This document shows, piece after piece, positions 1 through 60,495 of a stretch of DNA of 64,000 nucleotides. Position numbers and translations under genes: made by a program. Numbering within the stretch: the first letter of the stretch is position 1; each line of letters opens with the position of its first letter. The notes under the pieces were generated by a model that saw only the letters and a program-made list of their open reading frames with translations, did not search any database and was not told the origin of the DNA. The DNA comes from Dehalococcoidia bacterium. GTDB taxonomy: Bacteria > Chloroflexota > Dehalococcoidia > Bin125. The stretch lies in assembly GCA_965221065.1 (NCBI GenBank), contig OZ244861.1, forward strand, positions 2,867,956 through 2,931,955. The letters run 5' to 3'.

Positions 1-13
1 TCCAGAGCGAAGG

Positions 14-50
14 TCAGTTCGAAGGTTCTTGCTTTTAGGAAGTTTGGTGG
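14..50 (+). repeat. Direct repeat R1 (~38 bp) of the att-like repeat family near the tRNA-Ala 3' end
   Basis: gtcaGttcgaaggttcttgcttttaggaagtttggtgg matches R4 (9292..9329) at 37/38 positions by eye, same orientation. Confidence 0.7.
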
Positions 51-348
51 GCTGTGCACGCTTGGCCGAGAAGCGAACGTAGCCGTCGCGGTCGCGCTTG
101 AGCGGACAGGCGTCTGGGATCACTTCGAATGGCCACACAGGAACCGAGCCAGTCTCTGCCTCCAGTGTTCAGCGATGCATGCCTCGGCTGCAACGTTGTC
201 GAGAGGCTCTTGAACAACCGCGCCGACCCAGAGGAGCAACAGGCAATACGGCGATGCGCTTAAGCTCGCTGTCCATAGAGCAGCCATTCAGCTTTACCCT
301 CGAAACTGCTTCAACCTGCAGGGCCCTTCCGCTGATAGCGTTGGGGGC

Positions 349-3300
349 ATGTCCGAGAACTCGGCCCACGACGCGTTCGCAAGCCTTGCAGGAGGACCGG
401 CCGCGAAGATCGCTGACCTGTTTGAGCGCGCCTGGACCGTCGGCAGCCTCCTCGATCTGATCTCAGGCGAGATTGTCGAGTTGCGCCTGGAAGAGCAGGA
501 CCCGGATGGACTCGGCGTCGAATTCTCTCGTGTCACGGTCGCTGGCAACCACGAATACCACTCAGTCAAGCGCCAGGCGCCCGACTCCGCGGGCCGCTGG
601 ACACCCTCAGAAATCACCAGGAAATCTGGGCCTCGGATGCGCTCGTTCCTAGGCGATCTCTTCGGCCATCTTGGGCGCGACGAGACTACGGCGGCCGTAT
701 TCGTCAGCCAGGACGCCGTCCAGCATCTACGGGAAGCGTCGGAACGCGCACGCCAGGCGGTGAACCTCAGCGAGTTCCACGGCTTACTCTCGGCAGCGCA
801 GCGCCGCGCTTGGGACAAGCATGTGGTGCCCCTAGCTGAACGCCCTGACGAGGCCTACGCAAAGTTCCGAACGTGCGAGTTCGTCAACATCGAGCATCGC
901 CAACTGGTCCGCTGGGTCGAGCAGCGAATCTCCGCCCTGATTGCCCGGGAGGACTCCGAGCCCGTGGATGCCGAGCAGTTGAGGACCCTGCTAGAAGGGT
1001 TCGCCTGGAGTCGATTAGGTCAGTCGATCAGCCACGAAGACCTGGCACACAAGCTTGCTGCGCACGGATATCGAACTCGGGCGCCCTTGGCGGGCAGTCA
1101 GGCCGGACAGCAACTGCGCGCGATTACTGATGCTTACATCGGCAGAATCGAGCGGACGCTAATCAACGGCGCAGCGATTCCCCGTTCGCAATCGGAGTCG
1201 GTCGCAAACGACGTTCTATCTGGCGACCGGTCTCTGCTGCTACTCGGCGAGGCAGGCGTAGGAAAGAGCTGCGTCATGGCTCAAGTAGTGCGTGCGCTCC
1301 GCCTGAAGGGGGTGGTTTGCTTCGCCTTTCCGGCCAGTGATCTGCGGGGCGCTATGTCTGCGAAGGAGGTTGGTCAACGGATGGGCCTGCGAGAGTCGCC
1401 GGTCGGCGAGTTGGCGCTGGCCGCTCGGGGGCGCCCTGCGGTCCTCTGTATCGATCAACTCGACGGGCTGGCCGCCGATACAGAGCGAAACGAGCTCGGG
1501 CACCGCGTCCTGCACGCGCTCGCGGACGAAGCCTCGCACCACCCAAATCTGCGCGTTCTCTTCGCTTGTCGCTCGTTCGACCTCGACGAGGCGTCGTCGC
1601 TCGCCTGGGTCCACAAAGGGGACTCTGCGATCGCTCGCAAGGTTGAAGTACTCGTCTTGACCGTCGGCGACGTGACGCTGGCCCTTGACGACGTAGGGAT
1701 CGCGTGGCAGCAACTGACCGCGGAACAGATCGAACTGTTGCGCGTGCCCCTGCACCTCTATCTGTTCATTGAAGCGGCACAGTCCCGACAGCATCGCTTC
1801 GCGACCGTTGATGATCTATTCGACGCCTATTGGAAAGAGAAGTCGACGAAGGTCAGCACGGCCTTGCCCGCGGCAAACAGCGGCTGGGCTGCTTCAGTGT
1901 CCAGGCTGTGTCATGCGCTCAGCGAGCACGAGGCGTACTCCGTTCCTGATTATGAACTGCTCGACTACTTTCCGGCAGAGGCGCTCGCGATGGCGTCCGA
2001 AGCGGTGATCTCTCTTGAACAAGGCGAGGTCGGCTTCTTCCACGACGCCTTCAGCGACTACGCCTTCGCTCGCACTTTCGCCACCGAACGGCGAGACCTG
2101 CTCAAATGGCTCGAGGACGACCGGCAGGACTACTACCGCCGTCGTCAGGTGATTGCCGTACTCACGTTCATTCGCCGCCGACCAGGGGACCGAGCCCGCT
2201 ACCTGCAGTCCGTAGAGAGGCTGTTGGCCGGTCCTGAACTGCATTTTCATATCAAGCGCCGGATTATCGATTGGCTGCGGTCGATCGCTGATCCGCTCGC
2301 TGAGGAGTGGTCAATCCTGGAGCAACTTGAAGGACAACTTGGCGATCACGTTTGGCGGGTCGTCAGCAACTCGGTGCCGTGGTTCGACTTACTAATGCAG
2401 ACCGGACATTGGAAACGCTGGTTGAGCGGCAGCGACGAATGGATCGACCTCGCCGTAGGCCTTCTGCAGTCGCCGCGCCTGCTAGATGAGCGAACCCCGG
2501 ACATCCTCGATCTAATCGAGCAGCATCAGGATGGTTCGGAGGGTTGGCGGAATAGGATGTGGAGCCTGGCCCGTTGGGAGTCGGGCTACAGGGAGCCGAG
2601 AAAGCGGGCATGGCTGCTGGAACTTCTGGCGAGTGAATCCCCAGATAGTCCAGTGCTGTCGCTGAACGGCGAACTGCTGATCCAGGTGCTGCACGGTGTT
2701 AGACAACACGCTCCCGAGTTCGCGACCAGGGTCATCGGTGCCTGGTTCGATCACGTTCTTGCCGAGTTGGCTCGTGTAGACGAACCGGAACCGTGCTACA
2801 GCGACCTCTATCTGGGTTCCACCGGGTGGGAGATGGAGCAGTGCGCGAAGGCTGCTCCGGTTGCGTTCGTGGAGGAATTGTTCCCTCGTCTTGTCCGGCT
2901 GGAACAGAACGCTCCCCTGCAGCTGTTGACAGCGCCCAGCGGGACGGACTCGCCGCGCCGGGGGCTGCGTGAACTCGTCGGCGAGGCAATGATCCTCGCG
3001 GCTCACTCCGAGCCGAAGGCACTCCACTTGCTGGCGGAGGACGTCGACCGCCGCGGCGATCGGTGGACGCGCTGGATGAATGCCGTGATGCTCGCAGCGA
3101 TGAGCGCTAACCCCGAAGAGTTCGCGGACGCGATTGTGCAGTTCCTGTTGGCCGATCCGGATCGGCGACTCGACTCGGGATATGACCACTCGAACGGCGC
3201 TGAGCTCTTCTTGTCGGTCAGCCGCAGGGCCGTTGCGGCTGCGGCGCTGCATTGCTCGGATCCGCTGCTACGAGACATCGAATGCGCCATACTTGAGATT

Positions 3301-4911
3301 CAGCCAACGCGACCGCTGGTCGACGAATCCAGGGAGAAGATCGAACTCGCGCTCCTCTGGTGCTTGCCTGAGGACCGGATCGGATCGTCGGTTCGGTCGC
3401 GAATCCAGGAACTTGAGGCGCAGTTGCCGGAGGTAAAACGTCGCGGCGCGCCCGAGCCGGTTGACTACGAAGAGGCATTCCAATACGCGGAGTCGCCGAT
3501 TCCTGAAGCGGAGGCGCTCAGCACATCGGACGATGAGTGGCTCGATGCGATGCGGAATGTCGGCGGTACAAGCGCGACGTTCCATGGAGATCGATTCATC
3601 GGTGGTGCGCATGAGCTATCGCGAACCTTGGAACGCGCTGCGCGGCGAGATCCGGCACGATTCGCCTCACTGGCTCTGCGATTGGAGGCCACGGACCGGC
3701 CCGAGTACTTCAGCGGCCTCCTGCTTGGCCTTACCGGCAGCGAACCGGACTCTCCTCGAGCCGGAACCCAGGACCAAGTCACAGGCGTGATTCGCCGGAT
3801 AGTCGCCTTGGGTGTGGACATGCCCAAGACCGAGATAGCACGAGCGATCGGCTCGCTCGCCGACGAGCCGATACCGAACGACATGATCCGCAGCTTGTGC
3901 CGAATCGCGAGCGAGGATCCCGATCCAGCGGAGGATGCCTGGATCGGGCCGGAAGGCTCGATGGCGGCGATCAATCAAGCTATCAACACGGCCCGAGGCG
4001 CGGCCGCGGAGGCCATCGCCAAACTTCTGTTCGCTGAACGCAACCGCTGGGACCTGGTCAAGGACACGGTGCACCGGCTGGCCGAGGATCCTGTGCTGGC
4101 GGTCCGAGCGACGACGGCGCATTGCTTGTTGGCAATTCTGCCCACGAACCAGGACGAGGCTCTCGAATGCTTCGCGCGACTCATTGAGGAGGGTGCGCCG
4201 ATCGCCGATTCGCACTACGTCCGGCATTTCGTCGCTCGCGCCGCCAACCGCGACTACACAGCGATACGGCCGATTCTGAAGGGCTTGGTCGCGTCGGATA
4301 CAGATGCGGCCGCGCGCGTCGGTGCGAGTGCAATCGTGGGTGCCTCCCTTGGCCCGGACAATCCTGACGCGCAGGAGGATGCGCGAATGGTCGCCGAAAT
4401 GGGCGAACAGCAGCGATCTGGAGCTGCCGAGGTGTACGCAACCCATGTCGCAGATGAACGGGTGGGCGCCATATGCGCAGCGCGTCTCAGCGCACTGTTC
4501 AGCGACGACAGCGAGTTAGTCCGAGAAGCCGCCGCCCGTTGCTGGTACCGTTTCACTCCCGACCAGGTTGCGGGGCAAGGCAGCCTGATCGGAGCGTTCG
4601 CCCAGTCAAAGGCCTTCGAGGAAGCTCGCATCTCCATCCTGCTCAACCCGCTTGAAAGGACAAACCTTGCGTTGCCCCTGCAGCTCTGCGACCTCACCGA
4701 GCGGGCTCTTGACTCGTTCGGAGAGAAAGCCTCGTCGATTCGCTTCGCCGAGGCGTTTGCCGCAAAGACGCTCGGCGTGTTGATGTTTCGGCTACTGGAC
4801 GGTGTTTCTGATCCCGACGGGCAGGCGCGCATACGCGCCCTCATCGATCGAATGATCGAAGCGAATTTCTACGGCGTGGCAGAGGAACTGGAACGCCGCC
4901 TTGGCGAATAG
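349..4911 (+). CDS. Giant STAND-like P-loop NTPase (1520 aa) with putative N-terminal nuclease-like region and long C-terminal helical-repeat region; Avs-like antiviral ATPase candidate
   Basis: Walker A LLLLGEAGVGKSC. About 60 aa later Walker B VLCIDQLD. About 25 aa later hhhhxCRS (RVLFACRS); this spacing is typical of STAND/NB-ARC. The N-terminal ~80 aa has a D..(E)..K-like motif (DPDGLGVEF..HEYHSVKRQ) that can be aligned with the second giant protein (35641..39726). The C-terminal ~900 aa is Leu/Ala-rich helical-repeat-like. Long uninterrupted ORF with ATG start. Confidence 0.6.
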   Translation: MSENSAHDAFASLAGGPAAKIADLFERAWTVGSLLDLISGEIVELRLEEQDPDGLGVEFSRVTVAGNHEYHSVKRQAPDSAGRWTPSEITRKSGPRMRSFLGDLFGHLGRDETTAAVFVSQDAVQHLREASERARQAVNLSEFHGLLSAAQRRAWDKHVVPLAERPDEAYAKFRTCEFVNIEHRQLVRWVEQRISALIAREDSEPVDAEQLRTLLEGFAWSRLGQSISHEDLAHKLAAHGYRTRAPLAGSQAGQQLRAITDAYIGRIERTLINGAAIPRSQSESVANDVLSGDRSLLLLGEAGVGKSCVMAQVVRALRLKGVVCFAFPASDLRGAMSAKEVGQRMGLRESPVGELALAARGRPAVLCIDQLDGLAADTERNELGHRVLHALADEASHHPNLRVLFACRSFDLDEASSLAWVHKGDSAIARKVEVLVLTVGDVTLALDDVGIAWQQLTAEQIELLRVPLHLYLFIEAAQSRQHRFATVDDLFDAYWKEKSTKVSTALPAANSGWAASVSRLCHALSEHEAYSVPDYELLDYFPAEALAMASEAVISLEQGEVGFFHDAFSDYAFARTFATERRDLLKWLEDDRQDYYRRRQVIAVLTFIRRRPGDRARYLQSVERLLAGPELHFHIKRRIIDWLRSIADPLAEEWSILEQLEGQLGDHVWRVVSNSVPWFDLLMQTGHWKRWLSGSDEWIDLAVGLLQSPRLLDERTPDILDLIEQHQDGSEGWRNRMWSLARWESGYREPRKRAWLLELLASESPDSPVLSLNGELLIQVLHGVRQHAPEFATRVIGAWFDHVLAELARVDEPEPCYSDLYLGSTGWEMEQCAKAAPVAFVEELFPRLVRLEQNAPLQLLTAPSGTDSPRRGLRELVGEAMILAAHSEPKALHLLAEDVDRRGDRWTRWMNAVMLAAMSANPEEFADAIVQFLLADPDRRLDSGYDHSNGAELFLSVSRRAVAAAALHCSDPLLRDIECAILEIQPTRPLVDESREKIELALLWCLPEDRIGSSVRSRIQELEAQLPEVKRRGAPEPVDYEEAFQYAESPIPEAEALSTSDDEWLDAMRNVGGTSATFHGDRFIGGAHELSRTLERAARRDPARFASLALRLEATDRPEYFSGLLLGLTGSEPDSPRAGTQDQVTGVIRRIVALGVDMPKTEIARAIGSLADEPIPNDMIRSLCRIASEDPDPAEDAWIGPEGSMAAINQAINTARGAAAEAIAKLLFAERNRWDLVKDTVHRLAEDPVLAVRATTAHCLLAILPTNQDEALECFARLIEEGAPIADSHYVRHFVARAANRDYTAIRPILKGLVASDTDAAARVGASAIVGASLGPDNPDAQEDARMVAEMGEQQRSGAAEVYATHVADERVGAICAARLSALFSDDSELVREAAARCWYRFTPDQVAGQGSLIGAFAQSKAFEEARISILLNPLERTNLALPLQLCDLTERALDSFGEKASSIRFAEAFAAKTLGVLMFRLLDGVSDPDGQARIRALIDRMIEANFYGVAEELERRLGE

Positions 4912-5296
4912 CCGTTCTGGCACACGAGAGGCCATTTCAACGATCACGGACCAACATGCGCCGAGCTACAGAGCGTGAATCGGAATCTGCCCGCGTTGAT
5001 TTTCGCAAGCGCCTTGTAGCACTCCCTTGAGCTGCCGCTAGGGCGATTGGTGCGGCGCCTCTGCCTGCTGTCGGTAGCTACATGCCAGACCTACGGCTGG
5101 AGGAGTTCGCGGAAGAAAGTTGCCCGCTCTCACAGAGAGAGGGGATAGGACGACCGAGTGTGCGATGCACGCGCCTCAGCAGGAGATCAAGTGACGAGGC
5201 CGGAGTGCGCGCCTGACTCAATCGGGACGACTCAATGCCTACCAATCAGGTGGATGGCAGCCCGGGCGGTTGTGAAGCTAAAGATCGAGGTGGAAC

Positions 5297-5335
5297 GTCA
5301 ACTCAAAAGCTCTTGCTCTTAGGAGTTTTGATGGG
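5297..5335 (+). repeat. Direct repeat R2 (diverged copy of the att-like repeat)
   Basis: gtcaactcaaaagctcttgctcttaggagttttgatggg; ~75% identical to R4; shares the acgtcaactc 5' flank with R4. Confidence 0.55.
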
Positions 5336-5467
5336 CTGGTCAGGTCTGACCGATTGATTGTGCCACGGCACGGCAGACACAGCCAGGCAAGGAGGCGAGG
5401 CCAAGCCAGACCGGGCTAACGCTGGCGGCACCGAGTCAAGACTCGCTCGACCTACGGCAGCGTTGGC

Positions 5468-5776
5468 CTATAGGTCTGGGTGTTCGATCTCTCGGAGCGC
5501 TCTCTTGATCCCCCGTCGAGTCAGTTCTAGGCGCATGTGGACGCAGGTTCGTCGCGTCTCCCGGTAGTCCTTCAAGGTGCCCTCCAGCCGGGAGGCATGG
5601 CGAACAGCCGTATCGAGCTCGACTTGCTGTCTCGGTAGAGACCCACCGATGATCTTGCTCGCCCTCTCGCCCTCCTTGGCTGCCCCCTTGAGCGAGCCGA
5701 GCAATCCATCTAGTTTGGACATTCCGCTCTCGAAATCAGTGATCAGCTTGAGCGTGTCGTCCTGTCGATTCGCCAC
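5468..5776 (-). CDS. Hypothetical small protein (102 aa), module B cargo
   Basis: GTG start at 5776 preceded by GGAGGA at a good spacing; protein-like, charged, helical composition; no recognisable domain. Confidence 0.45.
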   Translation of the reverse strand: MANRQDDTLKLITDFESGMSKLDGLLGSLKGAAKEGERASKIIGGSLPRQQVELDTAVRHASRLEGTLKDYRETRRTCVHMRLELTRRGIKRALREIEHPDL

Positions 5777-5969
5777 GACTTCCTCCGAATCTCGGTTGCG
5801 CCTGACCTCTCCCCGCGCGCCAACTCACCCATGCTATGCCATCACCAGAGGGACAGAGCGAGCGTCTTGGCCGTGACCATGGGGCCGATGTGGCATCCTC
5901 TGGCAGGCGATGCGTGACCGCTATTGCCAACCTCTCTCCCGGACTCCAGTGCAGAGCTGCAGCGGGAAG

Positions 5970-6008
5970 GTCAACTCAAAGGGTCTTGCTTTTGGGAAGT
6001 TCGGCGGG
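5970..6008 (+). repeat. Direct repeat R3 (diverged copy of the att-like repeat)
   Basis: gtcaactcaaagggtcttgcttttgggaagttcggcggg; same orientation and length as R1/R2/R4. Confidence 0.55.
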
Positions 6009-6148
6009 CCGCCGTTTCCTACACATGGGGCTCGAGGCGGTCCGGGCCGCGTGAACGCTGCTCGCCATCTCGTACAACCTGCGCCCCCTGGACAAGTGCT
6101 GACGCCACCTGCGGCGGTGCATCGCAGACCTGCGCGCGGCAGCCCGGC

Positions 6149-6574
6149 CTATCGCCTATTGGCGACGCGAAGGCGCTCAGGCGGCAGCTTCTCGATCGTT
6201 CCTTCTTGCACCAAGGCATTGCGCAGCTTCCTGGCGGCGTTTCTGTTGGGTCCTCTCAATTCGGCGTGGGCATCGGCGAGCGCCTCGTGAGGGTGGTCGG
6301 CGTGGCCATCCAGGACGACATCGAACTCGCCCGGCTTTCGCGCTCGGCGCAGAGCGCCGACCGAGATCCGGCCACGGCCGTAGTGCTTGAACCTGCAGAG
6401 ATGAAGCTGTTCACCGTCCTGGTTGGGTAGCCGACTCCGGATGAACACAGACGGCGGTTCCGAGCTGCTGAAGACGGCGCTCGACAAGTCGCCGTTGCGG
6501 TAGACAGCACCCGGCCAGAGAAGCCGAAACGCTTGCTCGTCATCGTCGAGGCGCGGAAACCGGCGGGCGCCCAT
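6149..6574 (-). CDS. Hypothetical protein (141 aa), third gene of coupled three-gene operon
   Basis: ATG at 6574 overlaps the upstream gene's TGA (ATGA overlap at 6574..6577); no recognisable domain. Confidence 0.5.
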   Translation of the reverse strand: MGARRFPRLDDDEQAFRLLWPGAVYRNGDLSSAVFSSSEPPSVFIRSRLPNQDGEQLHLCRFKHYGRGRISVGALRRARKPGEFDVVLDGHADHPHEALADAHAELRGPNRNAARKLRNALVQEGTIEKLPPERLRVANRR

Positions 6575-7290
6575 CAGCGAGCGGAAAGCTCAGATCGGGA
6601 GGCGCACGACTTGAGCAGGGCGGCCAGGGCCGACACACTCTCCACGGGGACATCGCGGTCGTCGTCGCTGTTGCACAGGGCAGCCTCGCCGGGGAACGGC
6701 GCGTCGTCCTCGATGTAGAACTCGACCGAAGCGCCATTGTCGAACTGCCACTCGAGGATGACGAAGCCGTCTTCGGTGGTGGCGACTAGCGGCACGGCGG
6801 CGGCGCGGGTCCGGTCGGAGATTTCGAGGACCTTCATCACAACTTCGGGTTTGGGGTGGCCCGCGCCGTCGCAGTCGGGGCTCCAGACAATGCGCCGGAC
6901 GACGTCCTCGAGTAGCTCGATGTCAAGCGTGAGAGCGGGCCGCTGCGGTTGAACGCGGGCCCACTCGAGGAGGTGGCGGCTCCAGTACGACTGCTTGCCC
7001 GACGGCTCCTGGGTGTTGAGTTGCATCAGATACATCGTTGTGAAAGCCGACGACGCGGAACCTCGTTCGAAGATCGCACGGTAGTGATCGGCAAAGTAGG
7101 CGTTGGGGTTAGCGGGTTCTGATGCGGGGGGTTCATTGCGGCGCAGGATCTCATCCAGTGCGTTGCGCACGGGAGCGTCGACGTTGAGCGGATCTGCGGT
7201 CCGTTGTTGGTGACCAGATATGCCGAGACCGCCCGCGTTGCCTGTGGATATCGACGTGTCGATAGGCACAAAGGAAGACTCGTGGCTCAT
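6574..7290 (-). CDS. Hypothetical protein (238 aa), second gene of coupled three-gene operon
   Basis: ATG at 7290 overlaps the upstream gene's stop (ATGA at 7287..7290); acidic C-terminal half; no recognisable domain. Confidence 0.55.
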   Translation of the reverse strand: MSHESSFVPIDTSISTGNAGGLGISGHQQRTADPLNVDAPVRNALDEILRRNEPPASEPANPNAYFADHYRAIFERGSASSAFTTMYLMQLNTQEPSGKQSYWSRHLLEWARVQPQRPALTLDIELLEDVVRRIVWSPDCDGAGHPKPEVVMKVLEISDRTRAAAVPLVATTEDGFVILEWQFDNGASVEFYIEDDAPFPGEAALCNSDDDRDVPVESVSALAALLKSCASRSELSAR

Positions 7291-7997
7291 TGCGATTCCT
7301 CTCGATCGAGCAGCTCGACGAAGCGCCGGGCTTTGTCCAGTGAGTCGTTGAGGTGGCCTTCTATCTCGGCTGCGCCGAGTGGTCCGACCTCGAATCGGTG
7401 CAGGTTGGCGGCGATGAAGACGCGCGGGGTGCCTTCTTCGCGGAAGCGCGGTTCGACGGTGAGATTGAAGGCGCCACCGTCCTCGGCCGAGAAGGAGAGC
7501 GTGCCGTCGCCACCCACGATGGGCCAGTCATCTATCGCATCCAGGCCGCGAAACATGCGGTGGGCTAGGTAGGCGGAGGCGGTCATTGCGGCGTCCTGTT
7601 CGTAGACGAGATGGATGTTGTAGCCGACGGCGTAGGGCTGGTCGGGCACCCTCCCGGTGATCTGCAGCGCCAGACCGATGACCTCGGCCAGCCGGCCAAT
7701 GTCACCAGGACGTGGGTACTCCTGGACGACGGCGGAGCCGCTGGGGGCGACGTTGAAGGTGATTCGATCACGTCCGATGGCGAACGAGCGCGGTTCGGTG
7801 AATGAGGCCTCGACGCCGGGGCCGAAGCCGATGTCGAGACTGAGGCCTTGGCGCATGGCTGGGCCGGCTCCCGGTGCAGGTATGACCTCGGCGCCGAGCG
7901 ACCGCCGGAACTCGGACTGCGTTGCATCGTCGTGCAACAGCTGTAGCCCGACTAGCACGACGCTAGCCTGGAGTACCTCTAGGTCGAGGATGGTCAT
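7287..7997 (-). CDS. Hypothetical protein (236 aa from the ATG at 7997; the ORF is open up to 8456), first gene of three-gene operon
   Basis: ATG at 7997 preceded by AAGGAAA RBS; the upstream in-frame extension to 8456 looks non-protein-like; no recognisable domain. Confidence 0.5.
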   Translation of the reverse strand: MTILDLEVLQASVVLVGLQLLHDDATQSEFRRSLGAEVIPAPGAGPAMRQGLSLDIGFGPGVEASFTEPRSFAIGRDRITFNVAPSGSAVVQEYPRPGDIGRLAEVIGLALQITGRVPDQPYAVGYNIHLVYEQDAAMTASAYLAHRMFRGLDAIDDWPIVGGDGTLSFSAEDGGAFNLTVEPRFREEGTPRVFIAANLHRFEVGPLGAAEIEGHLNDSLDKARRFVELLDREESQ

Positions 7998-8898
7998 GAT
8001 TTCCTTCGGGCGAGTTCGATGCGCCAAGGGCGAGGCGTAGCCAATCCAGTTGCCTCCATCTCTCAGGCGCGCAGCATACGACACGTTTTGCGCGGCCTGC
8101 ACAGTGTCTACGATATGTCGTCCAGATGGCAGCGGTATTGCCTGCCCGGCACGTGATGCGTGATGGCCAATCAGGGCCGTCGAGATCGCGGGTCTGTCTC
8201 TCTTGACAGCTCTCGCGGCGATGATCGCCCTGGTGGCCGCCCTGTTCGAGGTCATGCAGCCAGCCTCGGCGGCCAACACGGTGAGGAACATCTCTAACGC
8301 CTCGGACACGTCGAGAAGGCCGGCTCCGGCTACGCCGTCAAGAGCCTCATACTGGACGGCGCGTCCGACAACTTGGCTACCTTCACTAGCGAGTACGCGA
8401 GCGTCAGTACCGGCCTCCACCTGTCGAACATCCAGACGGAAGCACTGGAAGCCCAAGCCTCACTGGAAGCCACTGACCGGACTCCACGTCGGCCCCTCCG
8501 GCCGGTGCGTCTGCGGCGTACACCATCACCGTAGGGATCCTCGACGCGGTTGGCGGCGTGAACAGTATCCTCCTGCGACTCGTGGGAACACTCAACGTCA
8601 CCGTCGGCGACTTCGACAGGGACGTTTGGTTCAAGGTTGTTGGAGGCTAGATGGCTCATGCAGTGAAACGCCATGATCCGGTAGCACAGAACTCCTCAAT
8701 CTCCTCTGCATCATCACCTTCACACTCTGCCCTTGTCGTCAGGTCTCACTGGGTACGGTCTAACTGTGCCGCCTCACGCTGGTCACTGCGTCGACAAGAC
8801 TCCAACCATGTTTCCGGACGTAGCCTGAAGCAATGCGCCGATGCATCCGACGGCCAATTCTCGTGAGAAGCACTCTTTGAGAGTGGAGAGCATTAGGG

Positions 8899-8921
8899 GT
8901 TGACTCCGGTCAGGAGTCAAC
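8899..8921. other. Perfect 9-bp-stem inverted repeat (gttgactcc ggtca ggagtcaac) in a lower-GC apparently non-coding stretch
   Basis: Read directly from the sequence; lies in the gene-poor 8457..9291 segment of the islet. Confidence 0.5.
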
Positions 8922-9291
8922 GACTGGCGCTGACTGCTTCTGCGTACTCGAGTCCTCCGCTGACCGCCAACATTGCATGAACCAGCTTCAACATCGTGAC
9001 GTGGCCGGCGCGCACCAAACAATCGCTCTTGGGCGGAGCCGGCAAGAGTGCCAAGGTCAAGCGCTGCCACTGGGCAGATGGGGGGCTGCACAGGCAGAGC
9101 CTCTTCGCCGACGCCAACGTCGCGTGTCAGTCGCCTCCAGATAGCCGGAAGTGCCGCGAAGCTCCAGAGGACCCCAATCGAGCCTCGTCGCGCTTGCTCG
9201 GCATCCCTCCGTAGCGCCGAGCTATCGCAGCTTCGCCCATAGGTATCCGGAGACTTGGAACGGCACTCACAATCACAGGTCCAGCGGAAAC

Positions 9292-9323
9292 GTCAACTCG
9301 AAGGTTCTTGCTTTTAGGAAGTT

Positions 9324-9329
<6 letters not shown>
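9292..9329 (+). repeat. Direct repeat R4, abutting and overlapping the tRNA-Ala 3' end (attL-like)
   Basis: gtcaactcgaaggttcttgcttttaggaagtttggtgg; its last ~8 nt are the reverse complement of the tRNA-Ala CCA, discriminator and first acceptor bases. Confidence 0.7.
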
Positions 9330-9399
<70 letters not shown>

Positions 9400-9446
9400 A
9401 CGCAGATCTCCGGCTTCCCCAGCGTACAGGCCGCTCGGACTGCGGT

Positions 9447-10007
9447 TCAATCAACCGCTCCATCATCGACGATCAGGCCGTCCGGCAGATCGACGGTCAT
9501 TAGGCCTGCGTCGAGGTCAATCTCGACAACGACATCGCCGAGCGCCGGCACCAGCACATCGCGCAGTTCGCCGCGATCCACGATGTAGACATCGTTTGCC
9601 CCGGTGCGCAGGACTTCGCGAATCGACCCCAGCCGGTCGCCGTCGCGAGTCAGGACCTGCAGTCCCTCGATTTCATCGACGTACCAGAACGGCTCCTCCG
9701 TCTCGGGACGCTCGCCGTCCGGGACTTCAATCAGTTCGTTGCGCAGCGCTTCGGCCGATTCTCGATCACTGATCCCATCGAGGTACAGATACACGCGCCC
9801 CTTCTGCCAGGTACAGCGGGCCACGCGTCGAGGCTCACCGCCGATGAACACCCGCCCGCCGGGCTCGAAACGTTCCGGGAAGTCAGTCAGGGGGAGCGCC
9901 TTGAGCTCGCCCTTGAGTCCTCGCGGGCGCTCGATCAAGCCAACGGCGCGGAACCCCGCGCGCGGCATGCGGTCTTCAGGTTGGCGTTGTCCCAGCCGTC
10001 GAGGCAT
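9447..10007 (-). CDS. rimM: Ribosome maturation factor RimM
   Basis: GLKGELKALPLTDFPERF motif and PRC-barrel-like C-terminus; conserved ffh-rpsP-KH-rimM synteny; the true start may be the internal Met (MPRAGF). Confidence 0.85.
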   Translation of the reverse strand: MPRRLGQRQPEDRMPRAGFRAVGLIERPRGLKGELKALPLTDFPERFEPGGRVFIGGEPRRVARCTWQKGRVYLYLDGISDRESAEALRNELIEVPDGERPETEEPFWYVDEIEGLQVLTRDGDRLGSIREVLRTGANDVYIVDRGELRDVLVPALGDVVVEIDLDAGLMTVDLPDGLIVDDGAVD

Positions 10008-10015
10008 TGATTGCG

Positions 10016-10243
10016 TCAGCGAATGTCGAGAGAGGTATCCACCGCGCGAGCGTGACCGGCCACCGAGAGCAGCGTGCGCATGGCCATCGCCAGGCGCCCC
10101 TCCCGGCCAATGATCCGTCCCATGTCGTCCTCGTGCACATTGAGCTGAATGGCGACGTGGTCGCCGTTCTCCACGCGTTGCACGCTGACGGCGTCAGGGT
10201 CGTCGACCATCCACTTGGCCACGTATTCGATGAAGTCTTCCAT
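10016..10243 (-). CDS. KH-domain RNA-binding protein (YlqC-like)
   Basis: 75 aa with the GRIIGREGR KH GXXG motif; sits between rpsP and rimM. Confidence 0.8.
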   Translation of the reverse strand: MEDFIEYVAKWMVDDPDAVSVQRVENGDHVAIQLNVHEDDMGRIIGREGRLAMAMRTLLSVAGHARAVDTSLDIR

Positions 10244-10255
10244 CGCGTTGCTCGA

Positions 10256-10564
10256 CTATTCGGCAGTTGCGGCGGCGGCCCGCTTGGCGTCCGCTCGCTT
10301 GCTGCGCGGCTTGGGTTGCCACGGCTCGATCAGGCCTTCTTTGGCGAGGAAGCGGTGCACCGTCTCGCTCGGCTGAGCGCCGTGCGAGAGCCAGTATTTG
10401 ACGCGCTCGCCGTTGACCTCGAACGTGGCCGGGTCGCTCAGGGGGTCGTAATGGCCAAGGCTCTCGACGAAGCGCCCGTCTCGTGGCTTGCGCGAATCCT
10501 GGACGACCACTCGATAGAAGGGCCGCCCCTTGCGCCCGTGGCGGGCGAGTCGAATTTTCAGCAT
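10256..10564 (-). CDS. rpsP: 30S ribosomal protein S16
   Basis: MLKIRLARHGRKGRPFYRVVV..GHYDP is a canonical S16 N-terminus. Confidence 0.92.
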   Translation of the reverse strand: MLKIRLARHGRKGRPFYRVVVQDSRKPRDGRFVESLGHYDPLSDPATFEVNGERVKYWLSHGAQPSETVHRFLAKEGLIEPWQPKPRSKRADAKRAAAATAE

Positions 10565-10639
10565 GTGCTCAGATCTGCCTGCTTCTCACTTCACGCGTTG
10601 CATCCAGCCTAGACCGATCCGGCTGTTGGCGCTGTCTCG

Positions 10640-11989
10640 CTAGCGACGCCCGATCGCCGCCCTGGGGCTGGGCATGCCCGGCGTGCGGCCCGAGGCGATG
10701 TCCTTCATGATCCCTTTGGCTTGCTTGAACTGATTCAGCAACTGATTGACTTCCTGCGGCGATGTCCCGCTCCCTTTGGCAATCCGCCGGCGCCGCGAAC
10801 CATTAATCATGTCCGGCTTGCGCCGCTCTTCCGGCGTCATTGAGAGCACGATCGCTTCGAAGTGCATGAAGAAGTCGTCGTCGATCTCGTCAACCTGGAT
10901 CTGGTCCTTGATCGAGCTCAGGCCCGGAATCATGCTCACGATCTGCGAGATCGGGCCCATCTGGCGCACCTTGCCGATCTGCTCGATGAAGTCCTCAAGG
11001 TCGAACTCGCCATCCTGCAATCGGCGCCGCCAGACCTTGGCGTCCTGCTCGCCGAACTCTTCCGATGCGCGTTCGACCAGGGTTGACATGTCGCCGCGCC
11101 CGAGGATGCGGCTGGCGAGGCGATCCGGGCGAAACGGTTCCAGAGCGTCAGGTCGCTCGCCGATGCCGAGAAACTTGATCGGCGCACCGGTGACCGCGCG
11201 AATCGAGAGCGCTGCACCACCGCGGGCATCGCCGTCCATCTTCGAGAGCACCACACCGGTGATGCCCACAGCTTCGTCGAACGCTGAAGCCGCATTCACG
11301 GCGTCCTGACCCGACATTGCATCGGCCACCAGCAGGACCTCCGTGGGTTCGAAGCACGCTTGCAACTCCGTGATTTCGGTCATCATGTCTTCGTCGATGT
11401 GCAGTCGACCGGCTGTATCAACGATCACCGTGCCGGCGCCAATCTGTTCGGCGCGTTCCAATCCCTGCTCAACGATCCTGGCGGGGCGTTCGTGAGAGCC
11501 GAGTTCGAAGACCTCGATGTCGAGCTGCCGACCCAGCGCCTGCAGCTGATCGATCGCCGCGGGTCGATAGACATCAGCCGCGATCAACAGGGGACGATCG
11601 CCGGACTTTCGCGCTCGCAACGCCAGCTTGGCCGAGGTCGTCGTCTTACCGGAGCCCTGCAGCCCGACCATGAGGATGATGGTTGGCCCTTGCGAAGCTC
11701 GATGCAGACTCGGCGACTCGGTGCCGAGCAGTGAGATCAGTTCCTCGTTGATGATCTCGACGATGCGATTGAGCGGCGTGGGTGAGCGCATCACCTCGTC
11801 GGTGTTGGCTCTACCGCGCACCGCCTTGATGAAGTCGCGGGCGACCTTGTAGTTGACGTCGGCCTCGAGCAGCGCCAATCGGACTTCCCGCAGAGCGGCC
11901 TCGAGGTCCTTCTCCGAGATGGCGCCGCGCCGGCCAAGCGTCGCGAAGACGCCCTGTAATTTGCCACTCAATGCATCAAACATGGCCAT
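10640..11989 (-). CDS. ffh: Signal recognition particle protein Ffh
   Basis: NG-domain GTPase motifs GLQGSGKTTT and DTAGR; C-terminal Met-rich M-domain. Confidence 0.92.
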   Translation of the reverse strand: MAMFDALSGKLQGVFATLGRRGAISEKDLEAALREVRLALLEADVNYKVARDFIKAVRGRANTDEVMRSPTPLNRIVEIINEELISLLGTESPSLHRASQGPTIILMVGLQGSGKTTTSAKLALRARKSGDRPLLIAADVYRPAAIDQLQALGRQLDIEVFELGSHERPARIVEQGLERAEQIGAGTVIVDTAGRLHIDEDMMTEITELQACFEPTEVLLVADAMSGQDAVNAASAFDEAVGITGVVLSKMDGDARGGAALSIRAVTGAPIKFLGIGERPDALEPFRPDRLASRILGRGDMSTLVERASEEFGEQDAKVWRRRLQDGEFDLEDFIEQIGKVRQMGPISQIVSMIPGLSSIKDQIQVDEIDDDFFMHFEAIVLSMTPEERRKPDMINGSRRRRIAKGSGTSPQEVNQLLNQFKQAKGIMKDIASGRTPGMPSPRAAIGRR

Positions 11990-14697: not shown

Positions 14698-14913
14698 GTC
14701 GCAAGGTTATCGCAGGTGCTTCTGTTGCGTGTCGGCGCCGAGTTCTGTTGACGGAGCGTTACGTGGAATAACTGATAACTGCGATTACCGATCGGCCACG
14801 CGTGTTCTGGCAAGCGCTTGCTAGAGCGGATCCAGCGCCGATACGTGTCGTCGGCGCCGCCAGTACCAGCAGACCGAACAGCACATGGGACCACGAAGGG
14901 GCAGCGCAGCGAC

Positions 14914-15840
14914 ATGGAACATGAAATCCAGCAGTTTCTCACCTACATGGCCGCCGAGCGGGGGGCCTCCGCGAACACCATCTCGGCGTATCGCAACGAT
15001 CTGGCCCAGTTGCGGGCCTACTTCGTCGAGCAGCACGCGAAGCTGCACGCGGATGATCCCTCCGCCACGACTCCGATCGAAGAGATCGACGCCGAGCAAC
15101 TGCAGGAGTACATCGTTCACCTGCGCGAGCAGCAGTACGCCGCGGCGACTGTTGCCCGCAAGGTCGCGGCGGTCAAGAGCCTGTTCAGCTACCTCCATGG
15201 CGAGAGCATCATCGACGTCAACCCCGCCGAGCAACTCAGTTCGCCCCGCGTCGGCCGCAGCCTGCCGCGCACATTGACCGTCCAGGAGGTCGACGCGCTG
15301 CTCGAGCAGCCCGGCCGCTGGAACACGCCGGAGGCGGCTCGCGATCAGGCGATGCTCGAGATGCTCTACGCCACCGGCATGCGCGTCTCCGAGTTTGTCT
15401 CGCTCGACCTTTCGTCGATCGAGTTGCAGGGTCAGCGGGCGTCGGTGCGCTGCGTCGGCAAGGGGCGACGCGAGCGTCTGATTCCGATTCACTCAGCCGC
15501 CGTAGCGGCGCTGCATCACTACCTGCAGGAGGCGCGGCCCAAGCTCGCTCGCGGGCGGCGCGAGGTTGCGCTGTTCATCAATCGACGGGGCGAGCGACTG
15601 ACCAGGCAGGGCGTCTGGCTGATCATCAAGCACTACGCCCAGGAGGCCGGGATCTCCGGCGTGACGCCGCACACCCTGCGCCACAGTTTCGCGACGCACC
15701 TGCTGCGTGGCGCTGCTCCGCTGCGCAACGTCCAGGAGCTGATGGGTCACGCCAACATCTCGACCACGCAGCTCTACACCCAGTTGACCGACGAGCATCT
15801 GCGGGACGTCTACGATCGGGCACATCCGCGCGCCAGCTAG
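14914..15840 (+). CDS. xerD: Tyrosine site-specific recombinase XerD/XerC family
   Basis: N-terminal SAM-like core-binding region (YMAAERGASANTISAYRNDL); catalytic HTLRHSFATHLL..GHANISTTQLYT with the Tyr nucleophile; start taken at the MEHEIQQ ATG. Confidence 0.85.
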   Translation: MEHEIQQFLTYMAAERGASANTISAYRNDLAQLRAYFVEQHAKLHADDPSATTPIEEIDAEQLQEYIVHLREQQYAAATVARKVAAVKSLFSYLHGESIIDVNPAEQLSSPRVGRSLPRTLTVQEVDALLEQPGRWNTPEAARDQAMLEMLYATGMRVSEFVSLDLSSIELQGQRASVRCVGKGRRERLIPIHSAAVAALHHYLQEARPKLARGRREVALFINRRGERLTRQGVWLIIKHYAQEAGISGVTPHTLRHSFATHLLRGAAPLRNVQELMGHANISTTQLYTQLTDEHLRDVYDRAHPRAS

Positions 15841-19236: not shown

Positions 19237-19313
19237 TGGCGCGCCCGGCAGGACTTGAACCTGCGACCTCTGCCTCCGCAGGGCAGCGCTCTAATCCGCT
19301 GAGCTACGGGCGC
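19237..19313 (-). tRNA. tRNA-Arg (anticodon reads GCG in my manual fold; backbone close to Arg-CCG tRNAs)
   Basis: GCGCCCGTAGCTCAGCGGATTAGAGCG..CTGCC-CTGCGGA-GGCAG..GGTTCAAGTCCTGCCGGGCGCGCCA; clean cloverleaf, 77 nt; the anticodon reading is unusual and should be verified. Confidence 0.7.
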
Positions 19314-19354
19314 ATTGAAATCGGCTTGAGTCGTGGTTGGAATGATTGGAGCGT

Positions 19355-19441
<87 letters not shown>

Positions 19442-19519
19442 AACGAGCCGGGGCCTCTCAGGCCCCGCATCACTCCGGTTGACGGCCAACCTCCCCAAGC
19501 GTATCCGCTGATCGTCTGC

Positions 19520-19596
19520 TGGTGGGCGATGCAGGACTTGAACCTGCGGCCTCTCGGATGTGAACCGAACGCTCTAGCCAGCTGAGCTAATCGCCC
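19520..19596 (-). tRNA. tRNA-Val (anticodon CAC)
   Basis: GGGCGATTAGCTCAGCTGGCTAGAGCG, anticodon loop TTCACAT, GGTTCAAGTCCTGCATCGCCCACCA; 77 nt. Confidence 0.8.
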
Positions 19597-19636
19597 CACT
19601 CGATTGCACGTCGATTGACGCACCCCGAGGTGCTGG

Positions 19637-19712
19637 TGGTAGCAGCGGCAGGACTCGAACCTGCGACACGGGGCTTATGAGTCCCCTGCTCTGCCAACTG
19701 AGCTACGCTGCC
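19637..19712 (-). tRNA. tRNA with CAT anticodon (elongator Met, or Ile2 if lysidinylated)
   Basis: GGCAGCGTAGCTCAGTTGGCAGAGCA, anticodon loop CTCATAA, GGTTCGAGTCCTGCCGCTGCTACCA; G1:U72 pair, so not an initiator. Confidence 0.75.
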
Positions 19713-31897: not shown

Positions 31898-33400
<1,503 letters not shown>

Positions 33401-33640: not shown

Positions 33641-33717
33641 GGGCCATTAGCTCAGCAGGTTAGAGCGCAGTCCTGATAAGACTGAGGTCCCTGGTTCGAG
33701 TCCAGGATGGCCCACCA
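33641..33717 (+). tRNA. tRNA-Ile (anticodon GAT), rrn-spacer type
   Basis: GGGCCATTAGCTCAGCAGGTTAGAGCG, anticodon loop CTGATAA, GGTTCGAGTCCAGGATGGCCCACCA; 240 nt after the 16S. Confidence 0.88.
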
Positions 33718-35294
33718 TCATGTACCGAATTGCGAACTCCTTCGGCGAGCGCTACTTCAGCAGCATCTTTGCGGCCGATCGGGCTGTCTTCCGGCATCGG
33801 GATCGTGTAGTTGATCACAGCCCGTCCGGGCTCGACGTCGATCCGCTTGATGAACGTGCGCAGGAACGCCTTCGACTCGGTGATGTCGCTGGTGCGCAAG
33901 AAGTCGGCCATGTCGGCGGCGAACTCAGCCACCACCTCAGCCTTGTCCAGCAGCGTGCGCCGTTCGGCCAGAGCCTTCCTGGCCTGCTCGGCGGCTGTCT
34001 CTAACTGCTCCTTGCGCGCCATGTGCTCGCGGATGCGCGGCGCCGCGTCATCGATTTCCAGGTCGGTCTTCTCGATCACGCGCCAGATGCGGTCCAGCAT
34101 CTGGCGGATCTCGCGCAACTCCGCCTCAATCATCTCCAATCGCTCGCGCTCCTGGTGTGCGGCGCCGTCCATCTCCTCGTCCAGCATCTTGACCAACTCG
34201 CGGATGTTGCTCTCGGTCAGCACGTGGTCGCGGAGTTGGTTGAGGATCAGGGTCTCGAACCGCTTGGCGTTGAGCCGGGGCGTCTCGCAACTGCCTGAGC
34301 CGCGCTTGAGCAGCGAGCCGCAGACGTAGTAGGAGTAGCGCCCGCCCTTGGCCTCGGACGCCGTCAACTGCTTGCCGCAGAGCGCGCAAGCGACCAGACC
34401 GGAGAGCAAGTAAGGGCTGGACGCGCGGCGCGGGTTGGACTTGGCCGGCGCCCGCGCTTCGAGCATGGTTCCCACCTGCTCGAACTCTTCCTTTGAGACG
34501 ATCGCCGGCACCGCATCCTCGACTCGGACCGGCTCAGATCCGTCGGTCGCCTTCAGTCCCCAGACCAGGGTGCCCATGTAGACCTCGTTGGAGAGGATCT
34601 TGTGCACCGCGGTCTTGAGCCAGCGCTTGCCCGTGGCCGAGGGAATGCCCTCTGAGTTGAGCGTCTTCACGATCTCGAGGATGCTCTGGCCGCGCAGCGC
34701 CATCTCGAAGATGCGCCGCACGACGGCGTCCCGGGGCGGGTCGAGTTCGAGCCGAGGTCGCTGCTTGCCGCCGTCCGTGACGTAGACCTTGCGGTAGCCG
34801 AGCGGCGCGTGCGAGGCCAGGTAGAAGCCGCGCGAGGCCGACTCGCGCATCCCGCGGCGGACCTCCTGGGCGAGGTTCTCGGAGTAGAACTCGTCCACGC
34901 TCTCGATGATCGCTTCCATCAGCTTGCCGGTCGGGGTGTCGTCGGCGTGCTCGGTGATCGAGGTGACGCGGATCCCTCTGCGTCTGAGCATCGACTTGAA
35001 GGCGACCGCGTGTTCTCGCTTGCGCGTGAACCGAGAGAACTTCCAGACCAGGATCTCCTGGAACGGCGCATCCGTCCGCTGGGCTTCGTCGAGCATCTTC
35101 TGGAATTGCGGCCGGTCGGCGACGCGGCCCGACTCCGCTTCATCGACGTACTCCCGCACGACGCGGTAGCCGTTGCGCCCGGCGAAGTCGCGCAAGGCGC
35201 GCAGTTGAGCGGCGACGGAGAGGTCGACGTCCTGGCGGTCTGAAGAGACGCGGGCGTACAGCGCCGCTGGAATCTGATCGAGTGGTTGTTTCAT
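33660..35294 (-). CDS. Large serine recombinase (integrase) of integrated mobile element
   Basis: N-terminal resolvase domain ALYARVSSDRQ with catalytic Ser; recombinase domain; zinc ribbon CALCGK..YYVCGS..GSCE; long coiled-coil. AGGAG RBS. The last ~19 codons lie antisense within tRNA-Ile. Confidence 0.88.
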   Translation of the reverse strand: MKQPLDQIPAALYARVSSDRQDVDLSVAAQLRALRDFAGRNGYRVVREYVDEAESGRVADRPQFQKMLDEAQRTDAPFQEILVWKFSRFTRKREHAVAFKSMLRRRGIRVTSITEHADDTPTGKLMEAIIESVDEFYSENLAQEVRRGMRESASRGFYLASHAPLGYRKVYVTDGGKQRPRLELDPPRDAVVRRIFEMALRGQSILEIVKTLNSEGIPSATGKRWLKTAVHKILSNEVYMGTLVWGLKATDGSEPVRVEDAVPAIVSKEEFEQVGTMLEARAPAKSNPRRASSPYLLSGLVACALCGKQLTASEAKGGRYSYYVCGSLLKRGSGSCETPRLNAKRFETLILNQLRDHVLTESNIRELVKMLDEEMDGAAHQERERLEMIEAELREIRQMLDRIWRVIEKTDLEIDDAAPRIREHMARKEQLETAAEQARKALAERRTLLDKAEVVAEFAADMADFLRTSDITESKAFLRTFIKRIDVEPGRAVINYTIPMPEDSPIGRKDAAEVALAEGVRNSVHDGGPSWTRTRDLSLIRTAL

Positions 35295-60450: not shown

Positions 60451-60495
60451 CCTAACACCCCATCGAATCGACGCCCGCTCGACGGGCGCTTCCCA

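Follow-up and report, generated by a model that had tools for sequence, protein, structure and literature searches.

Co-oriented 57-bp repeats behind a tRNA-Ala gene of a Dehalococcoidia bacterium as probable attachment-site arms of a CcrB/DsiB-like large serine recombinase

The tRNA-Ala(CGC) gene of a Dehalococcoidia bacterium (Chloroflexota, Bin125; GenBank assembly GCA_965221065.1) adjoins an array of direct repeats and cargo genes on contig OZ244861.1, within a stretch of 64,000 nucleotides (positions 2,867,956 to 2,931,955 of the forward strand) that we call the window. By repeat finding and alignment, we identified four co-oriented direct copies of a 57-bp unit in the window, R1 to R4; the family members returned by the repeat finder (1-50, 5285-5334, 5958-6007, and 9280-9329) are extendable to 56 to 57 nt. 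The outer part of each unit resembles the end of a coding sequence on the minus strand and is referred to as its tail, and the centre is the symmetry point on which all sites were aligned. Loci with L-numbers are DNA fetched from other genomes (345 kb). The features of the array, its flank, and a second locus that bears on it, which carries a large serine recombinase (LSR), are as follows:

1..50, minus strand: R1; first 7 nt beyond the left window edge; centre dinucleotide GG at 49-50
51..90, no strand assigned: partner arm of R1, the far end of module A; contains CCGAGAAGCGAAC
349..4911, plus strand: module A cargo, a 1520-aa AAA/STAND-type nucleoside triphosphatase (NTPase) with HEAT repeats; weak matches to Avs2 and PDC-M54A
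5278..5334, minus strand: R2, the most diverged copy; tail PSKLLRARAFELTFHLDL, stop TAG; centre GG at 5333-5334
5468..5776, minus strand: module B cargo, a single small open reading frame (ORF) of 102 aa without family match
5951..6007, minus strand: R3; tail PPNFPKARPFELTFPLQL, stop lost (TGC); centre GG at 6006-6007
6149..9091, minus strand: module C cargo, co-directional ORFs at 6149-6574, 6574-7290, 7287-8456, and possibly 8783-9091
9273..9329, minus strand: R4, the consensus copy; centre GG at 9328-9329, equal to tRNA positions 72-71
9324..9399, minus strand: tRNA-Ala(CGC), with acceptor and T-arm as putative B-type half-site; T-loop GAAC at +15 from the centre
9447..11989, minus strand: conserved chromosomal flank, rimM (9447-10007) and ffh (10640-11989), shared with L028 and L030
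14779-15837: Xer-type tyrosine recombinase gene, 5.4 kb from the array, beside enolase, position kept in L028 and L030
33641..33717, plus strand: tRNA-Ile(GAT), target of a second, integrase-bearing island; junction geometry as at R4/tRNA-Ala
33660..35294, minus strand: intact CcrB-like LSR with Resolvase, Recombinase, and Zn_ribbon_recom domains

The four copies are real and far beyond chance. The exact 29-mer core occurs in R1 and R4 only and had 0 matches in 100 shuffles, and a degenerate 17-mer has four matches, all on the plus strand and exactly at R1 to R4, against an expectation of 0.03. A profile search of the whole window found no fifth copy on either strand of the 64 kb. When the copies are aligned with their flanks, similarity breaks off abruptly at both unit edges; in R1, the tail's last codon and the stop codon fall left of base 1. 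A sequence-only reading made earlier of this DNA had rightly seen four direct repeats in one orientation but had put their length at about 39 bp, whereas the unit is 57 bp long and bears a coding signature unseen there. Over the 38-nt frame of that reading, identity to R4 is 36/38 for R1 (not the 37/38 given), 31/38 for R2, and 33/38 for R3; over 57 nt it is 42/57 for R2 and 46/57 for R3. Its division of the cargo into a giant STAND NTPase, a single small gene, and a three-gene operon is as we find it, the last being a minus-strand gene set at 6149-8456, with an alternative ORF in module B (5577-5876, plus strand) and zero matches for the module C ORFs in Pfam, PADLOC, or NCBIfam. Its remark that no integrase lies between the repeats also holds, as no recombinase was found between R1 and R4. 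R4 does overlap the end of tRNA-Ala, by 6 nt only (TGGTGG, that is, CCACCA), and its other 51 nt lie outside the tRNA.

To follow the unit in other genomes, 185,579 species genomes were scanned with a pattern fixed at the 19 positions invariant across R1 to R4. Of 20 matches, 17 fell in metagenome-assembled genomes (MAGs) of Chloroflexota/Dehalococcoidia, many of them bearing sponge-metagenome style names, and 3 in Bacteroidota (chance). There are one to four exact-pattern matches per MAG; nhmmer on the fetched loci added a few diverged copies, and a metagenome scan gave five further matches, mostly duplicates. A profile built from the scan matches recovered about 30 unit sites in the fetched loci and the window, from at least 10 Chloroflexota MAGs. 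The unit adjoins tRNA-Ala(CGC) in the window, L006, L018, L028, and L030, tRNA-Ala(GGC) in L002, tRNA-Glu(TTC) in L011, and a decayed tRNA fragment (pseudo-tRNA) in L008; the remaining sites have no tRNA alongside, and L029 has a degenerate relative of the unit beside tRNA-Met. In multicopy loci (the window, L007, L009, L019, and L020, with arrays of two to four), copies are always co-oriented. These neighbors, the clustering, and the single orientation per locus indicate that the unit is neither tRNA-derived nor a dispersed repeat of the repetitive extragenic palindrome (REP) type. A duplicated tRNA 3' end, as implied in the sequence-only reading, would not recur behind three different tRNAs and at non-tRNA sites. 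The genome-wide REP-like dispersal that the same reading had weighed against itself was not seen either: as judged also for miniature inverted-repeat transposable elements, the four copies in 64 kb form one cluster in one orientation. A viral origin found no useful support in IMG/VR, which was searched with the unit pattern, a profile of the tail peptide, and the LSR.

Analysis of the conservation pattern across these sites revealed a bipartite unit. On the tRNA strand it reads CCA CCA AAC TTC CTA AAA GCA AGA ACC TTC GAG TTG ACG TTC CCG CTG GAC CTG TGA, which translates as PPNFLKARTFELTFPLDL followed by the stop. The 24 nt nearest the centre and the tRNA (9306-9329 in R4, CCACCA included) form an invariant half-site, unchanging at all three codon positions, whereas the outer 33 nt with the stop (9273-9305 in R4, encoding TFELTFPLDL and TGA) vary with codon periodicity on the strand opposite to the window plus strand. 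Over the outer 30 coding nucleotides, the first, second, and third codon positions have mean entropies of 0.68, 0.36, and 1.01 (permutation p = 0.009). The tail frame has a pN/pS of 0.27 (0.39 for the whole unit), and none of the five remaining frames has less than 0.62. The stop falls at the same codon in 27 of 29 full copies (TGA in 23, TAA in 2, TAG in 2), with 0 internal stops; the conserved leucines are encoded variously by CTG, CTA, TTG, CTC, and CTT; and the variant tails PPNWTKSRTFELTFELDL and PPNCTKSRTFELTFALER, both followed by the stop, keep frame and stop across many nucleotide differences. We found no conserved ORF body upstream of the tail, where there is a tRNA or unrelated sequence instead; in L003 the tail frame opens merely 3 codons ahead of the unit. 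When a concatemer of tails was used to look for a protein family with this ending, the only match was a 62-aa ORF, P0001, and this is the L014 copy itself. Reading the unit in the forward frame, as what is left of an integrase 3' end, was rejected on its pN/pS (0.62 to 0.78 versus 0.27 to 0.39) and on the fixed stop.

The link to a recombinase came through the cargo. Homologues of the window NTPase were traced to their contigs, which led to an element in L031 with TrwB-like and relaxase-like genes, McrBC, and an LSR whose gene overlaps at its 3' end, in antisense, the 3' end of tRNA-Glu(CTC). A tblastn search with this LSR retrieved a 68%-identical gene in the window, the LSR at 33660-35294, for which the best NCBIfam match is CcrB, below the equivalog cut-off. 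Its product ends in ...AEVALAEGVRNSVHDG-GPSWTRTRDLSLIRTAL and the stop, and tRNA-Ile(GAT), read in antisense, supplies its last 17 codons. Its 3' arm, GTTCGCAATTCGGTACATGATGGT followed by the central GG, is of the type that adjoins repeat copies in L004, L014, L009, and L021. More specifically, the nucleotide motif at the gene end, GTTCGCAATTCGGTACATGATGG (...GVRNSVHDG), recurs as AAAGTTCGCAGTTCGGTACACGACGG (KVRSSVHDG) directly ahead of the repeat tail and in its reading frame in L004, L014, L009 (at 6850), and L021; it is also present at the LSR genes of L031 and L032. Elsewhere in the 345 kb it is confined to LSR gene ends, one fossil joint of an LSR end with a pseudo-tRNA, and one apparent chance site. 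BLASTP likewise aligned residues 37-56 of P0001, ungapped, with the last residues of the window LSR (E = 1e-4). Thus, ends of serine-recombinase genes run on in frame into the repeat, and in some copies or relatives a repeat-like arm is continuous with or adjoins an LSR gene; the enzyme to look for is an LSR and not the tyrosine integrase that the sequence-only reading had expected. In the fossil joint, which lies in L012 (5680-5736, minus strand), an integrase-end arm, GGTTCGCAGTACAGTCC, precedes what remains of an antisense tRNA in decayed form, TGGCCGACCTTCTGGGACTCGAAG; no integrase gene is left there, a repeat copy lies about 500 nt away, and an orthologous joint was found in L016 (2958-2986) with a hidden Markov model (HMM) of the arm.

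Related LSRs show what may lie beyond such gene ends. In the best 120 (at least 69% identity) of 4,766 homologues with E <= 1e-30, 98 have C termini translated from the antisense of tRNAs of several types, their genes running antisense into the tRNA gene, which calls for caution in annotation. A further 17 of these 120 end in repeat-like tails, for example, GGPFFTIDRTVFEMRLGTL, GGPILTIGRTVFEMWLGAI, and GGPSCTELRTFVLEITL, each closed by a stop, and GGP(D/N)WTKSRT.... At the DNA level, GG-GCCTTTTTTCACGATAGACAGAACCGTCTTTGAGATGCGGTTGGGGACTCTGTGA, which is related to the repeat and has tail and stop, comes after the integrase end in L035, and the integrase end in L032 is followed by GG-GCCGGACTGTACGAAATCGAGAACC, which is 21/25 identical to the L028 repeat; GG-GCCGTCGTGTACCGAACTGCGCAC in L034 is the arm that partners the repeat in L014. 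The family's ORF lengths, 544 to 643 aa, reflect the sequence beyond the crossover. Integrase ORFs routinely run 16 to 17 codons antisense through their target tRNA (ending, for example, in ...GPSWTRTRDLSLIRTAL or ...GPGWIRTSDRAVMSRLL and the stop), so that the C terminus is dictated by the adjoining tRNA. L035 also contains two serine recombinase genes in the same orientation 10 kb apart (137-1750 and 10001-11638), the second ending in a repeat-like tail, which looks like two integrase-bearing islands in tandem.

The sites themselves obey a common grammar when aligned on the symmetry point between their GTTC and GAAC motifs. On the window plus strand, 28 of 30 sites have GG as their central dinucleotide. 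GAAC lies at +21 to +24 in repeat arms and integrase-end arms and the T-loop GAAC at +15 to +18 in all tRNA arms (9/9), and the junction of the window LSR with tRNA-Ile shows the same pair of spacings. In LSR attP half-sites, the motif recognized by the zinc ribbon domain occupies positions 16 to 24, and it lies about 5 bp nearer the centre in attB; the polarity of the sites is set by the central dinucleotide alone (PMC3783163). The present sites follow this rule, the distal motif being nearer the centre in host arms than in element arms, and the +21/+15 pair is the signature of large serine integrase sites. The crossover would fall at tRNA positions 71-72 (CC as read in the tRNA, GG on the plus strand of the window); the repeat arm starts with ACCA, and therefore recombination would rebuild the tRNA end. 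Three types of sites can be told apart:

tRNA-CC-repeat: R4, a putative B-P' hybrid, attL-type
integrase end-CC-repeat: L014 and relatives, attP-like, as expected for the joint of two tandem islands
integrase end-GG-antisense tRNA: window tRNA-Ile, the other putative hybrid type

Between the repeat arrays and the attP-like sites of L032 and L035, the central four bases are reverse-complemented. Such an inverted centre should flip the polarity of integration, so that the tail arm, not the integrase end, would be the one joined to the tRNA.

The differences between loci have the repeat as their limit. At the tRNA-Ala/rimM locus, repeat-bounded cargo differs among the window, L006, L018, L028, and L030, and in the pairs L012/L016 and L004/L014 the repeat and its stop-side flank are common while the sequence beyond the centre differs. 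A repeat closely follows the 3' end of the NTPase gene in the window (R2), L028, L030, and, in degenerate form, L029; this repeat is a single copy beside tRNA-Ala in L028 and L030 and stands beside tRNA-Met in L029. Repeat variants travel with cargo, the NTPase gene being paired with N[WC]TKSR/SKLLRAR variants. In the L031 element (685-9848), a 43%-identical NTPase homologue accompanies McrBC, TrwB-like, and Replic_Relax genes and the serine recombinase at tRNA-Glu(CTC), and the NTPase gene therefore moves between island types. The cargo beside repeats in other genomes is mostly defence-type:

L003: DACNG/DACNH and RES
L004: SNF2+PLD
L006: AAA_13
L012 and L019: CBASS-like SMODS with patatin, and XRE/ImmA regulators
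L012 and L016: TerB_N/TerB (the L020 homologue was grouped by BLAST clustering only)
L013: SIR2_2 and STAND ATPase
L016: DUF6361 and helicase

An rve-type transposase gene, IS21 IstA/IstB-like by eye, lies inside the cargo next to the tRNA-Ala(GGC)-linked repeat of L002 (3893-6555), and L005 has an IstB-like fragment. A permuted "tmRNA*" called by ARAGORN in L006 (855-1556), which would have given a transfer-messenger RNA-like reading, overlaps the genuine tRNA-Ala(CGC) and was rejected; it is almost certainly a false positive raised by the acceptor and T-arm of that tRNA.

On the basis of these observations, we consider it probable that the repeats are att-site arms of a CcrB/DsiB-like LSR and bound islands stacked behind the tRNA. 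Members of this family would integrate islands at the extreme 3' end of tRNA genes, with the T-loop (GTTCGA) acting as the distal recognition motif of a host-side, B-type half-site. The 24 invariant nucleotides, ACCAAACTTCCTAAAAGCAAGAAC when read outward from the centre, would be the element-side, P-type half-site, with GAAC 6 bp further out. The integrase ORF is predicted to read through the crossover and to take its last 16 to 18 codons from whatever arm lies beyond, which in an attP or tandem-joint configuration would be the repeat. The repeat would then combine an element-borne attP-type half-site with an integrase C-terminal tail, translated as such where it is joined to a gene. An integrase ORF that spans its crossover would explain why the outer 33 nt are coding-like with a fixed stop, why no ORF body precedes them, and why the unit has sharp edges, formed by the crossover on one side and the integrase stop on the other.

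Applied to the window, this scheme makes R4 an attL-type hybrid of tRNA half-site and repeat, in keeping with the attL-like behavior that the sequence-only reading had ascribed to it, and R1 to R3 would be joints between successively integrated islands, without integrase. Each repeat appears to belong with the cargo on its stop-codon side, R4 with module C, R3 with B, and R2 with A (the NTPase), since L012/L016 and L004/L014 share flanks on that side, the NTPase gene has its linked repeat, and variants follow cargo; R1 would belong to a fourth module left of the window. From the tRNA outward the order would be C, B, A, and the fourth module, with the tRNA-proximal island arriving last. The lower identity of R2 and R3, formerly taken to mark older events, need not do so, because variants travel with cargo and the model makes the module nearest the tRNA the youngest. 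The partner arm of R1, CCGAGAAGCGAAC, resembles the integrase-end arm CCGAACTGCGAAC, with GAAC at +25 versus +21, and could, on this weak likeness, be a decayed or variant P-type arm. As the islands have no integrase of their own, a resident LSR would have to act in trans if they are still mobile, and the window LSR at 33660-35294 is a candidate for that role. The serial accretion of islands proposed in the sequence-only reading was therefore largely right, the class of recombinase and the origin of the repeat excepted.

If correct, this interpretation accounts for the integrase-less, repeat-bounded arrangement of defence genes in sponge-type Chloroflexota. The host half-site is apparently the near-universal T-arm and acceptor end of tRNAs, which makes landing behind many tRNAs possible. 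The LSR family is large and little studied (more than 4,700 homologues at E <= 1e-30), and the grammar of its sites is concrete and testable. Since serine integrases are tools of genome engineering, a defined, portable, and naturally multicopy target could be of practical interest. An integrase ORF that spans its own crossover has a C terminus that depends on the state of integration, which is a possible regulatory device. A further and rather doubtful extension is that the reaction rewrites the enzyme's own C-terminal tail, which would be an antisense-tRNA tail when integrated and the repeat-encoded one (...RTFELTFxLxL and stop) when excised or in a tandem joint, and that the selected repeat tail tunes activity or directionality as a built-in sensor of the integration state. 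In the same conjecture, the polarity-switched branch would have given rise to integrase-free, single-site defence cassettes that resident integrases would shuffle in trans among many tRNA loci, which would amount to a serine-recombinase analogue of the integron.

Several results weigh against the attachment-arm interpretation. We found no empty tRNA-Ala site: every genome seen with the tRNA-Ala/rimM locus has a tRNA-adjacent repeat. The evidence for recombination is comparative polymorphism only, and no excised circle was seen; the crossover position and the switch in polarity are deduced from symmetry and identity boundaries, not observed. An LSR gene is present neither inside the window array nor in any 8-kb repeat locus, and hence a cognate recombinase within the site-bounded element is missing; the LSR nearest to the array is 24 kb off. 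Among database proteins, there is none in which an LSR body ends in the exact PPNFLKAR... tail, which only P0001 carries, and intact integrases of the exact polarity must therefore be either unsampled or extinct. Lastly, the likeness of the partner arms of R1 to R3 to integrase arms is visible by eye and not significant with the arm HMM, so the joints in the window may be dead or relics.

The alternative that survives best, though still improbable, is that of a host-side landing pad, where the unit is a duplicated chromosomal pseudo-attB arm not borne by the element and the flank linked to it is chromosomal. It would suit the constancy with which the repeat and its stop-side flank stay together across genomes (L012/L016 and L004/L014) and the presence of a copy at every tRNA-Ala/rimM locus examined. 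The half-site spacing is of the attP type (GAAC at +21), not the +15 of the host tRNA arms, however; in L032 and L035, the LSR genes are followed at once by repeat-like arms, which form the second arm of attP-like sites; and repeat variants covary with the NTPase cargo across genomes and tRNAs.

A classical tRNA island array, built by tyrosine integrases and with a duplicated tRNA-Ala 3' segment as attL/attR core, is very unlikely and already contradicted. The location behind a tRNA 3' end, the co-oriented repeats, and the variable cargo are all what such an array would show, but the repeat shares 6 nt with the tRNA against 51 nt outside it, one and the same unit stands behind three different tRNAs, and it continues in frame from the ends of serine-recombinase genes. 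The expected integrase beside the tRNA and repeats within the 3' half of the tRNA were not found. A jackhmmer search over the loci for tyrosine recombinases found only the Xer-like gene at 14779-15837; L028 and L030 have it at the same place next to enolase, which marks it as a housekeeping gene rather than the island integrase.

About equally unlikely is an expression signal or small gene, that is, a promoter, terminator, small RNA, or micropeptide accompanying tRNAs or defence operons. The coding-like tail with its conserved stop and a TTGAC hexamer on the tail strand could be cited for it; against it, the orientation of cargo relative to the repeat is mixed, and each specific candidate was rejected. 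No Rfam family lies over the repeats, whose consensus fold is weak (-4.4 kcal/mol) and devoid of covariation; predicted promoter-like and terminator-like sites coincide with none of the copies; and a free-standing peptide gene is contradicted by the absence of a start codon in the tRNA-adjacent copies and L003 and by unrelated upstream ORFs. An integron-like array, namely, a cluster of attC sites lacking integron integrases (CALIN) with attC-type sites acting as folded single strands and an integron integrase elsewhere, can virtually be dismissed, for although short conserved repeats do separate integrase-less cassettes here and the unit length is near that of the shortest attC sites, the fold test contradicts it (no stable hairpin, covariation, or R''/R' complementarity), gene orientation is mixed, modules reach 5 kb with several genes, and no IntI-type tyrosine recombinase was found.

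The interpretation of the repeats as LSR attachment arms gains from a precedent in the same bacterial class. In the ssrA islands of Dehalococcoides, DsiB, a CcrB-like serine integrase of 540 aa, is encoded on the reverse strand next to the target, and the island boundaries are marked by a 20-bp repeat of the ssrA end, beside which further sequence is conserved (PMC3146451). In that study, 15 of 31 islands had no integration module and were interpreted as accreted cis-mobilizable elements (McMurdie et al. 2011, PMC3146451). The likeness extends to tandem stacking downstream of one tRNA-like gene 3' end, short co-oriented repeats, a CcrB-type serine recombinase of about 540 aa, and integrase-less members, and the tRNA-Ile island of the window fits this layout with its integrase on the reverse strand beside the target. 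The stacking mechanism is thus known, and the arrays described here are a variant of the Dehalococcoides-type tandem islands. Unlike those, the present array targets ordinary tRNAs of several kinds rather than ssrA, and its crossover would be at the acceptor end (71-72) instead of the T-loop. A repeat of about 20 bp copied from the target 3' end was not found, only CCACCA (6 nt) being shared; the 57-bp repeat appears to be element-borne, with an integrase C-terminal coding tail; and the tail arm, not the integrase end, would be joined to the tRNA. The cargo is defence-type here and reductive dehalogenases there.

Other site-specific systems share single features with the array. A point in common with the staphylococcal cassette chromosome (SCC) is that CcrB is the best NCBIfam match of the window LSR (below the equivalog cut-off); no ccrA-like partner of SCCmec/CcrAB was seen here. 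SCC elements, which comprise composite and ccr-less pseudo-SCC forms, stack in tandem at one site, have repeated integration-site boundaries, and include integrase-less members mobilized in trans; they target the 3' end of a protein gene, orfX/rlmH, with a CcrA and CcrB pair. To our knowledge, no read-through of the site by a recombinase ORF is known for SCC. The LSRs of phages (A118/LI, Bxb1, and phiC31) have in common with the present system pseudo-palindromic sites, polarity set by the central dinucleotide, and the motif shift between attP and attB. They use one specific attB, usually inside a protein-coding gene, whereas here the host half-site is the T-arm of many tRNAs and the integrase ORF extends across the crossover. 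Archaeal integrases of the SSV1 type are tyrosine recombinases. Their gene includes attP, and integration at a tRNA splits it, with a large part removed. The overlap of an integrase gene with its own attP and the separation of part of the ORF upon tRNA integration are similar, but here a tail of 16 to 18 aa would be exchanged and the enzyme left intact with an alternative tail. In outline, the arrays also recall integron arrays and CALINs, in that each cassette goes with one recombination site while the gene for the recombinase lies at another place; they differ in the class of recombinase, a double-stranded pseudo-palindrome versus a folded attC, cassette size, and gene orientation.

The second island of the window (33641-46920) is integrated at tRNA-Ile(GAT), directly downstream of a 16S rRNA gene (31898-33398). 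Besides the LSR, it has an ORF of 1361 aa that matches no family (35641-39726) and genes for an ApeA-like HEPN protein, a SmaI-like restriction enzyme and its N4/N6 methylase, and a coupling protein of the TrwB/TraG type (44350-46920). Its far end was not found in the window: GGCCCACCA does not recur on the right strand, and the part from 35 to 64 kb contains no repeat-like half-site. No 23S rRNA was detected in the 64 kb, although the 16S rRNA gene is followed by tRNA-Ile at 31898-33717; the rRNA operon is either split or interrupted by the tRNA-Ile island. Elsewhere in the window, a minus-strand cluster of four tRNAs (Arg-GCG, Leu-CAG, Val-CAC, and Met-CAT; 19237-19712) and a nearby tRNA-Val(TAC) (21689-21765) have no adjoining repeat copy or integrase. 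Finally, a tandem duplication of about 517 to 520 bp comprises blocks at 60449-60883 and 60965-61403 that are 76 to 94% identical, and just downstream of it a 24-nt palindromic motif, CCCCGCATCAAGTGCGGGGCAGGC, occurs at 61523, 62237, and 62261.

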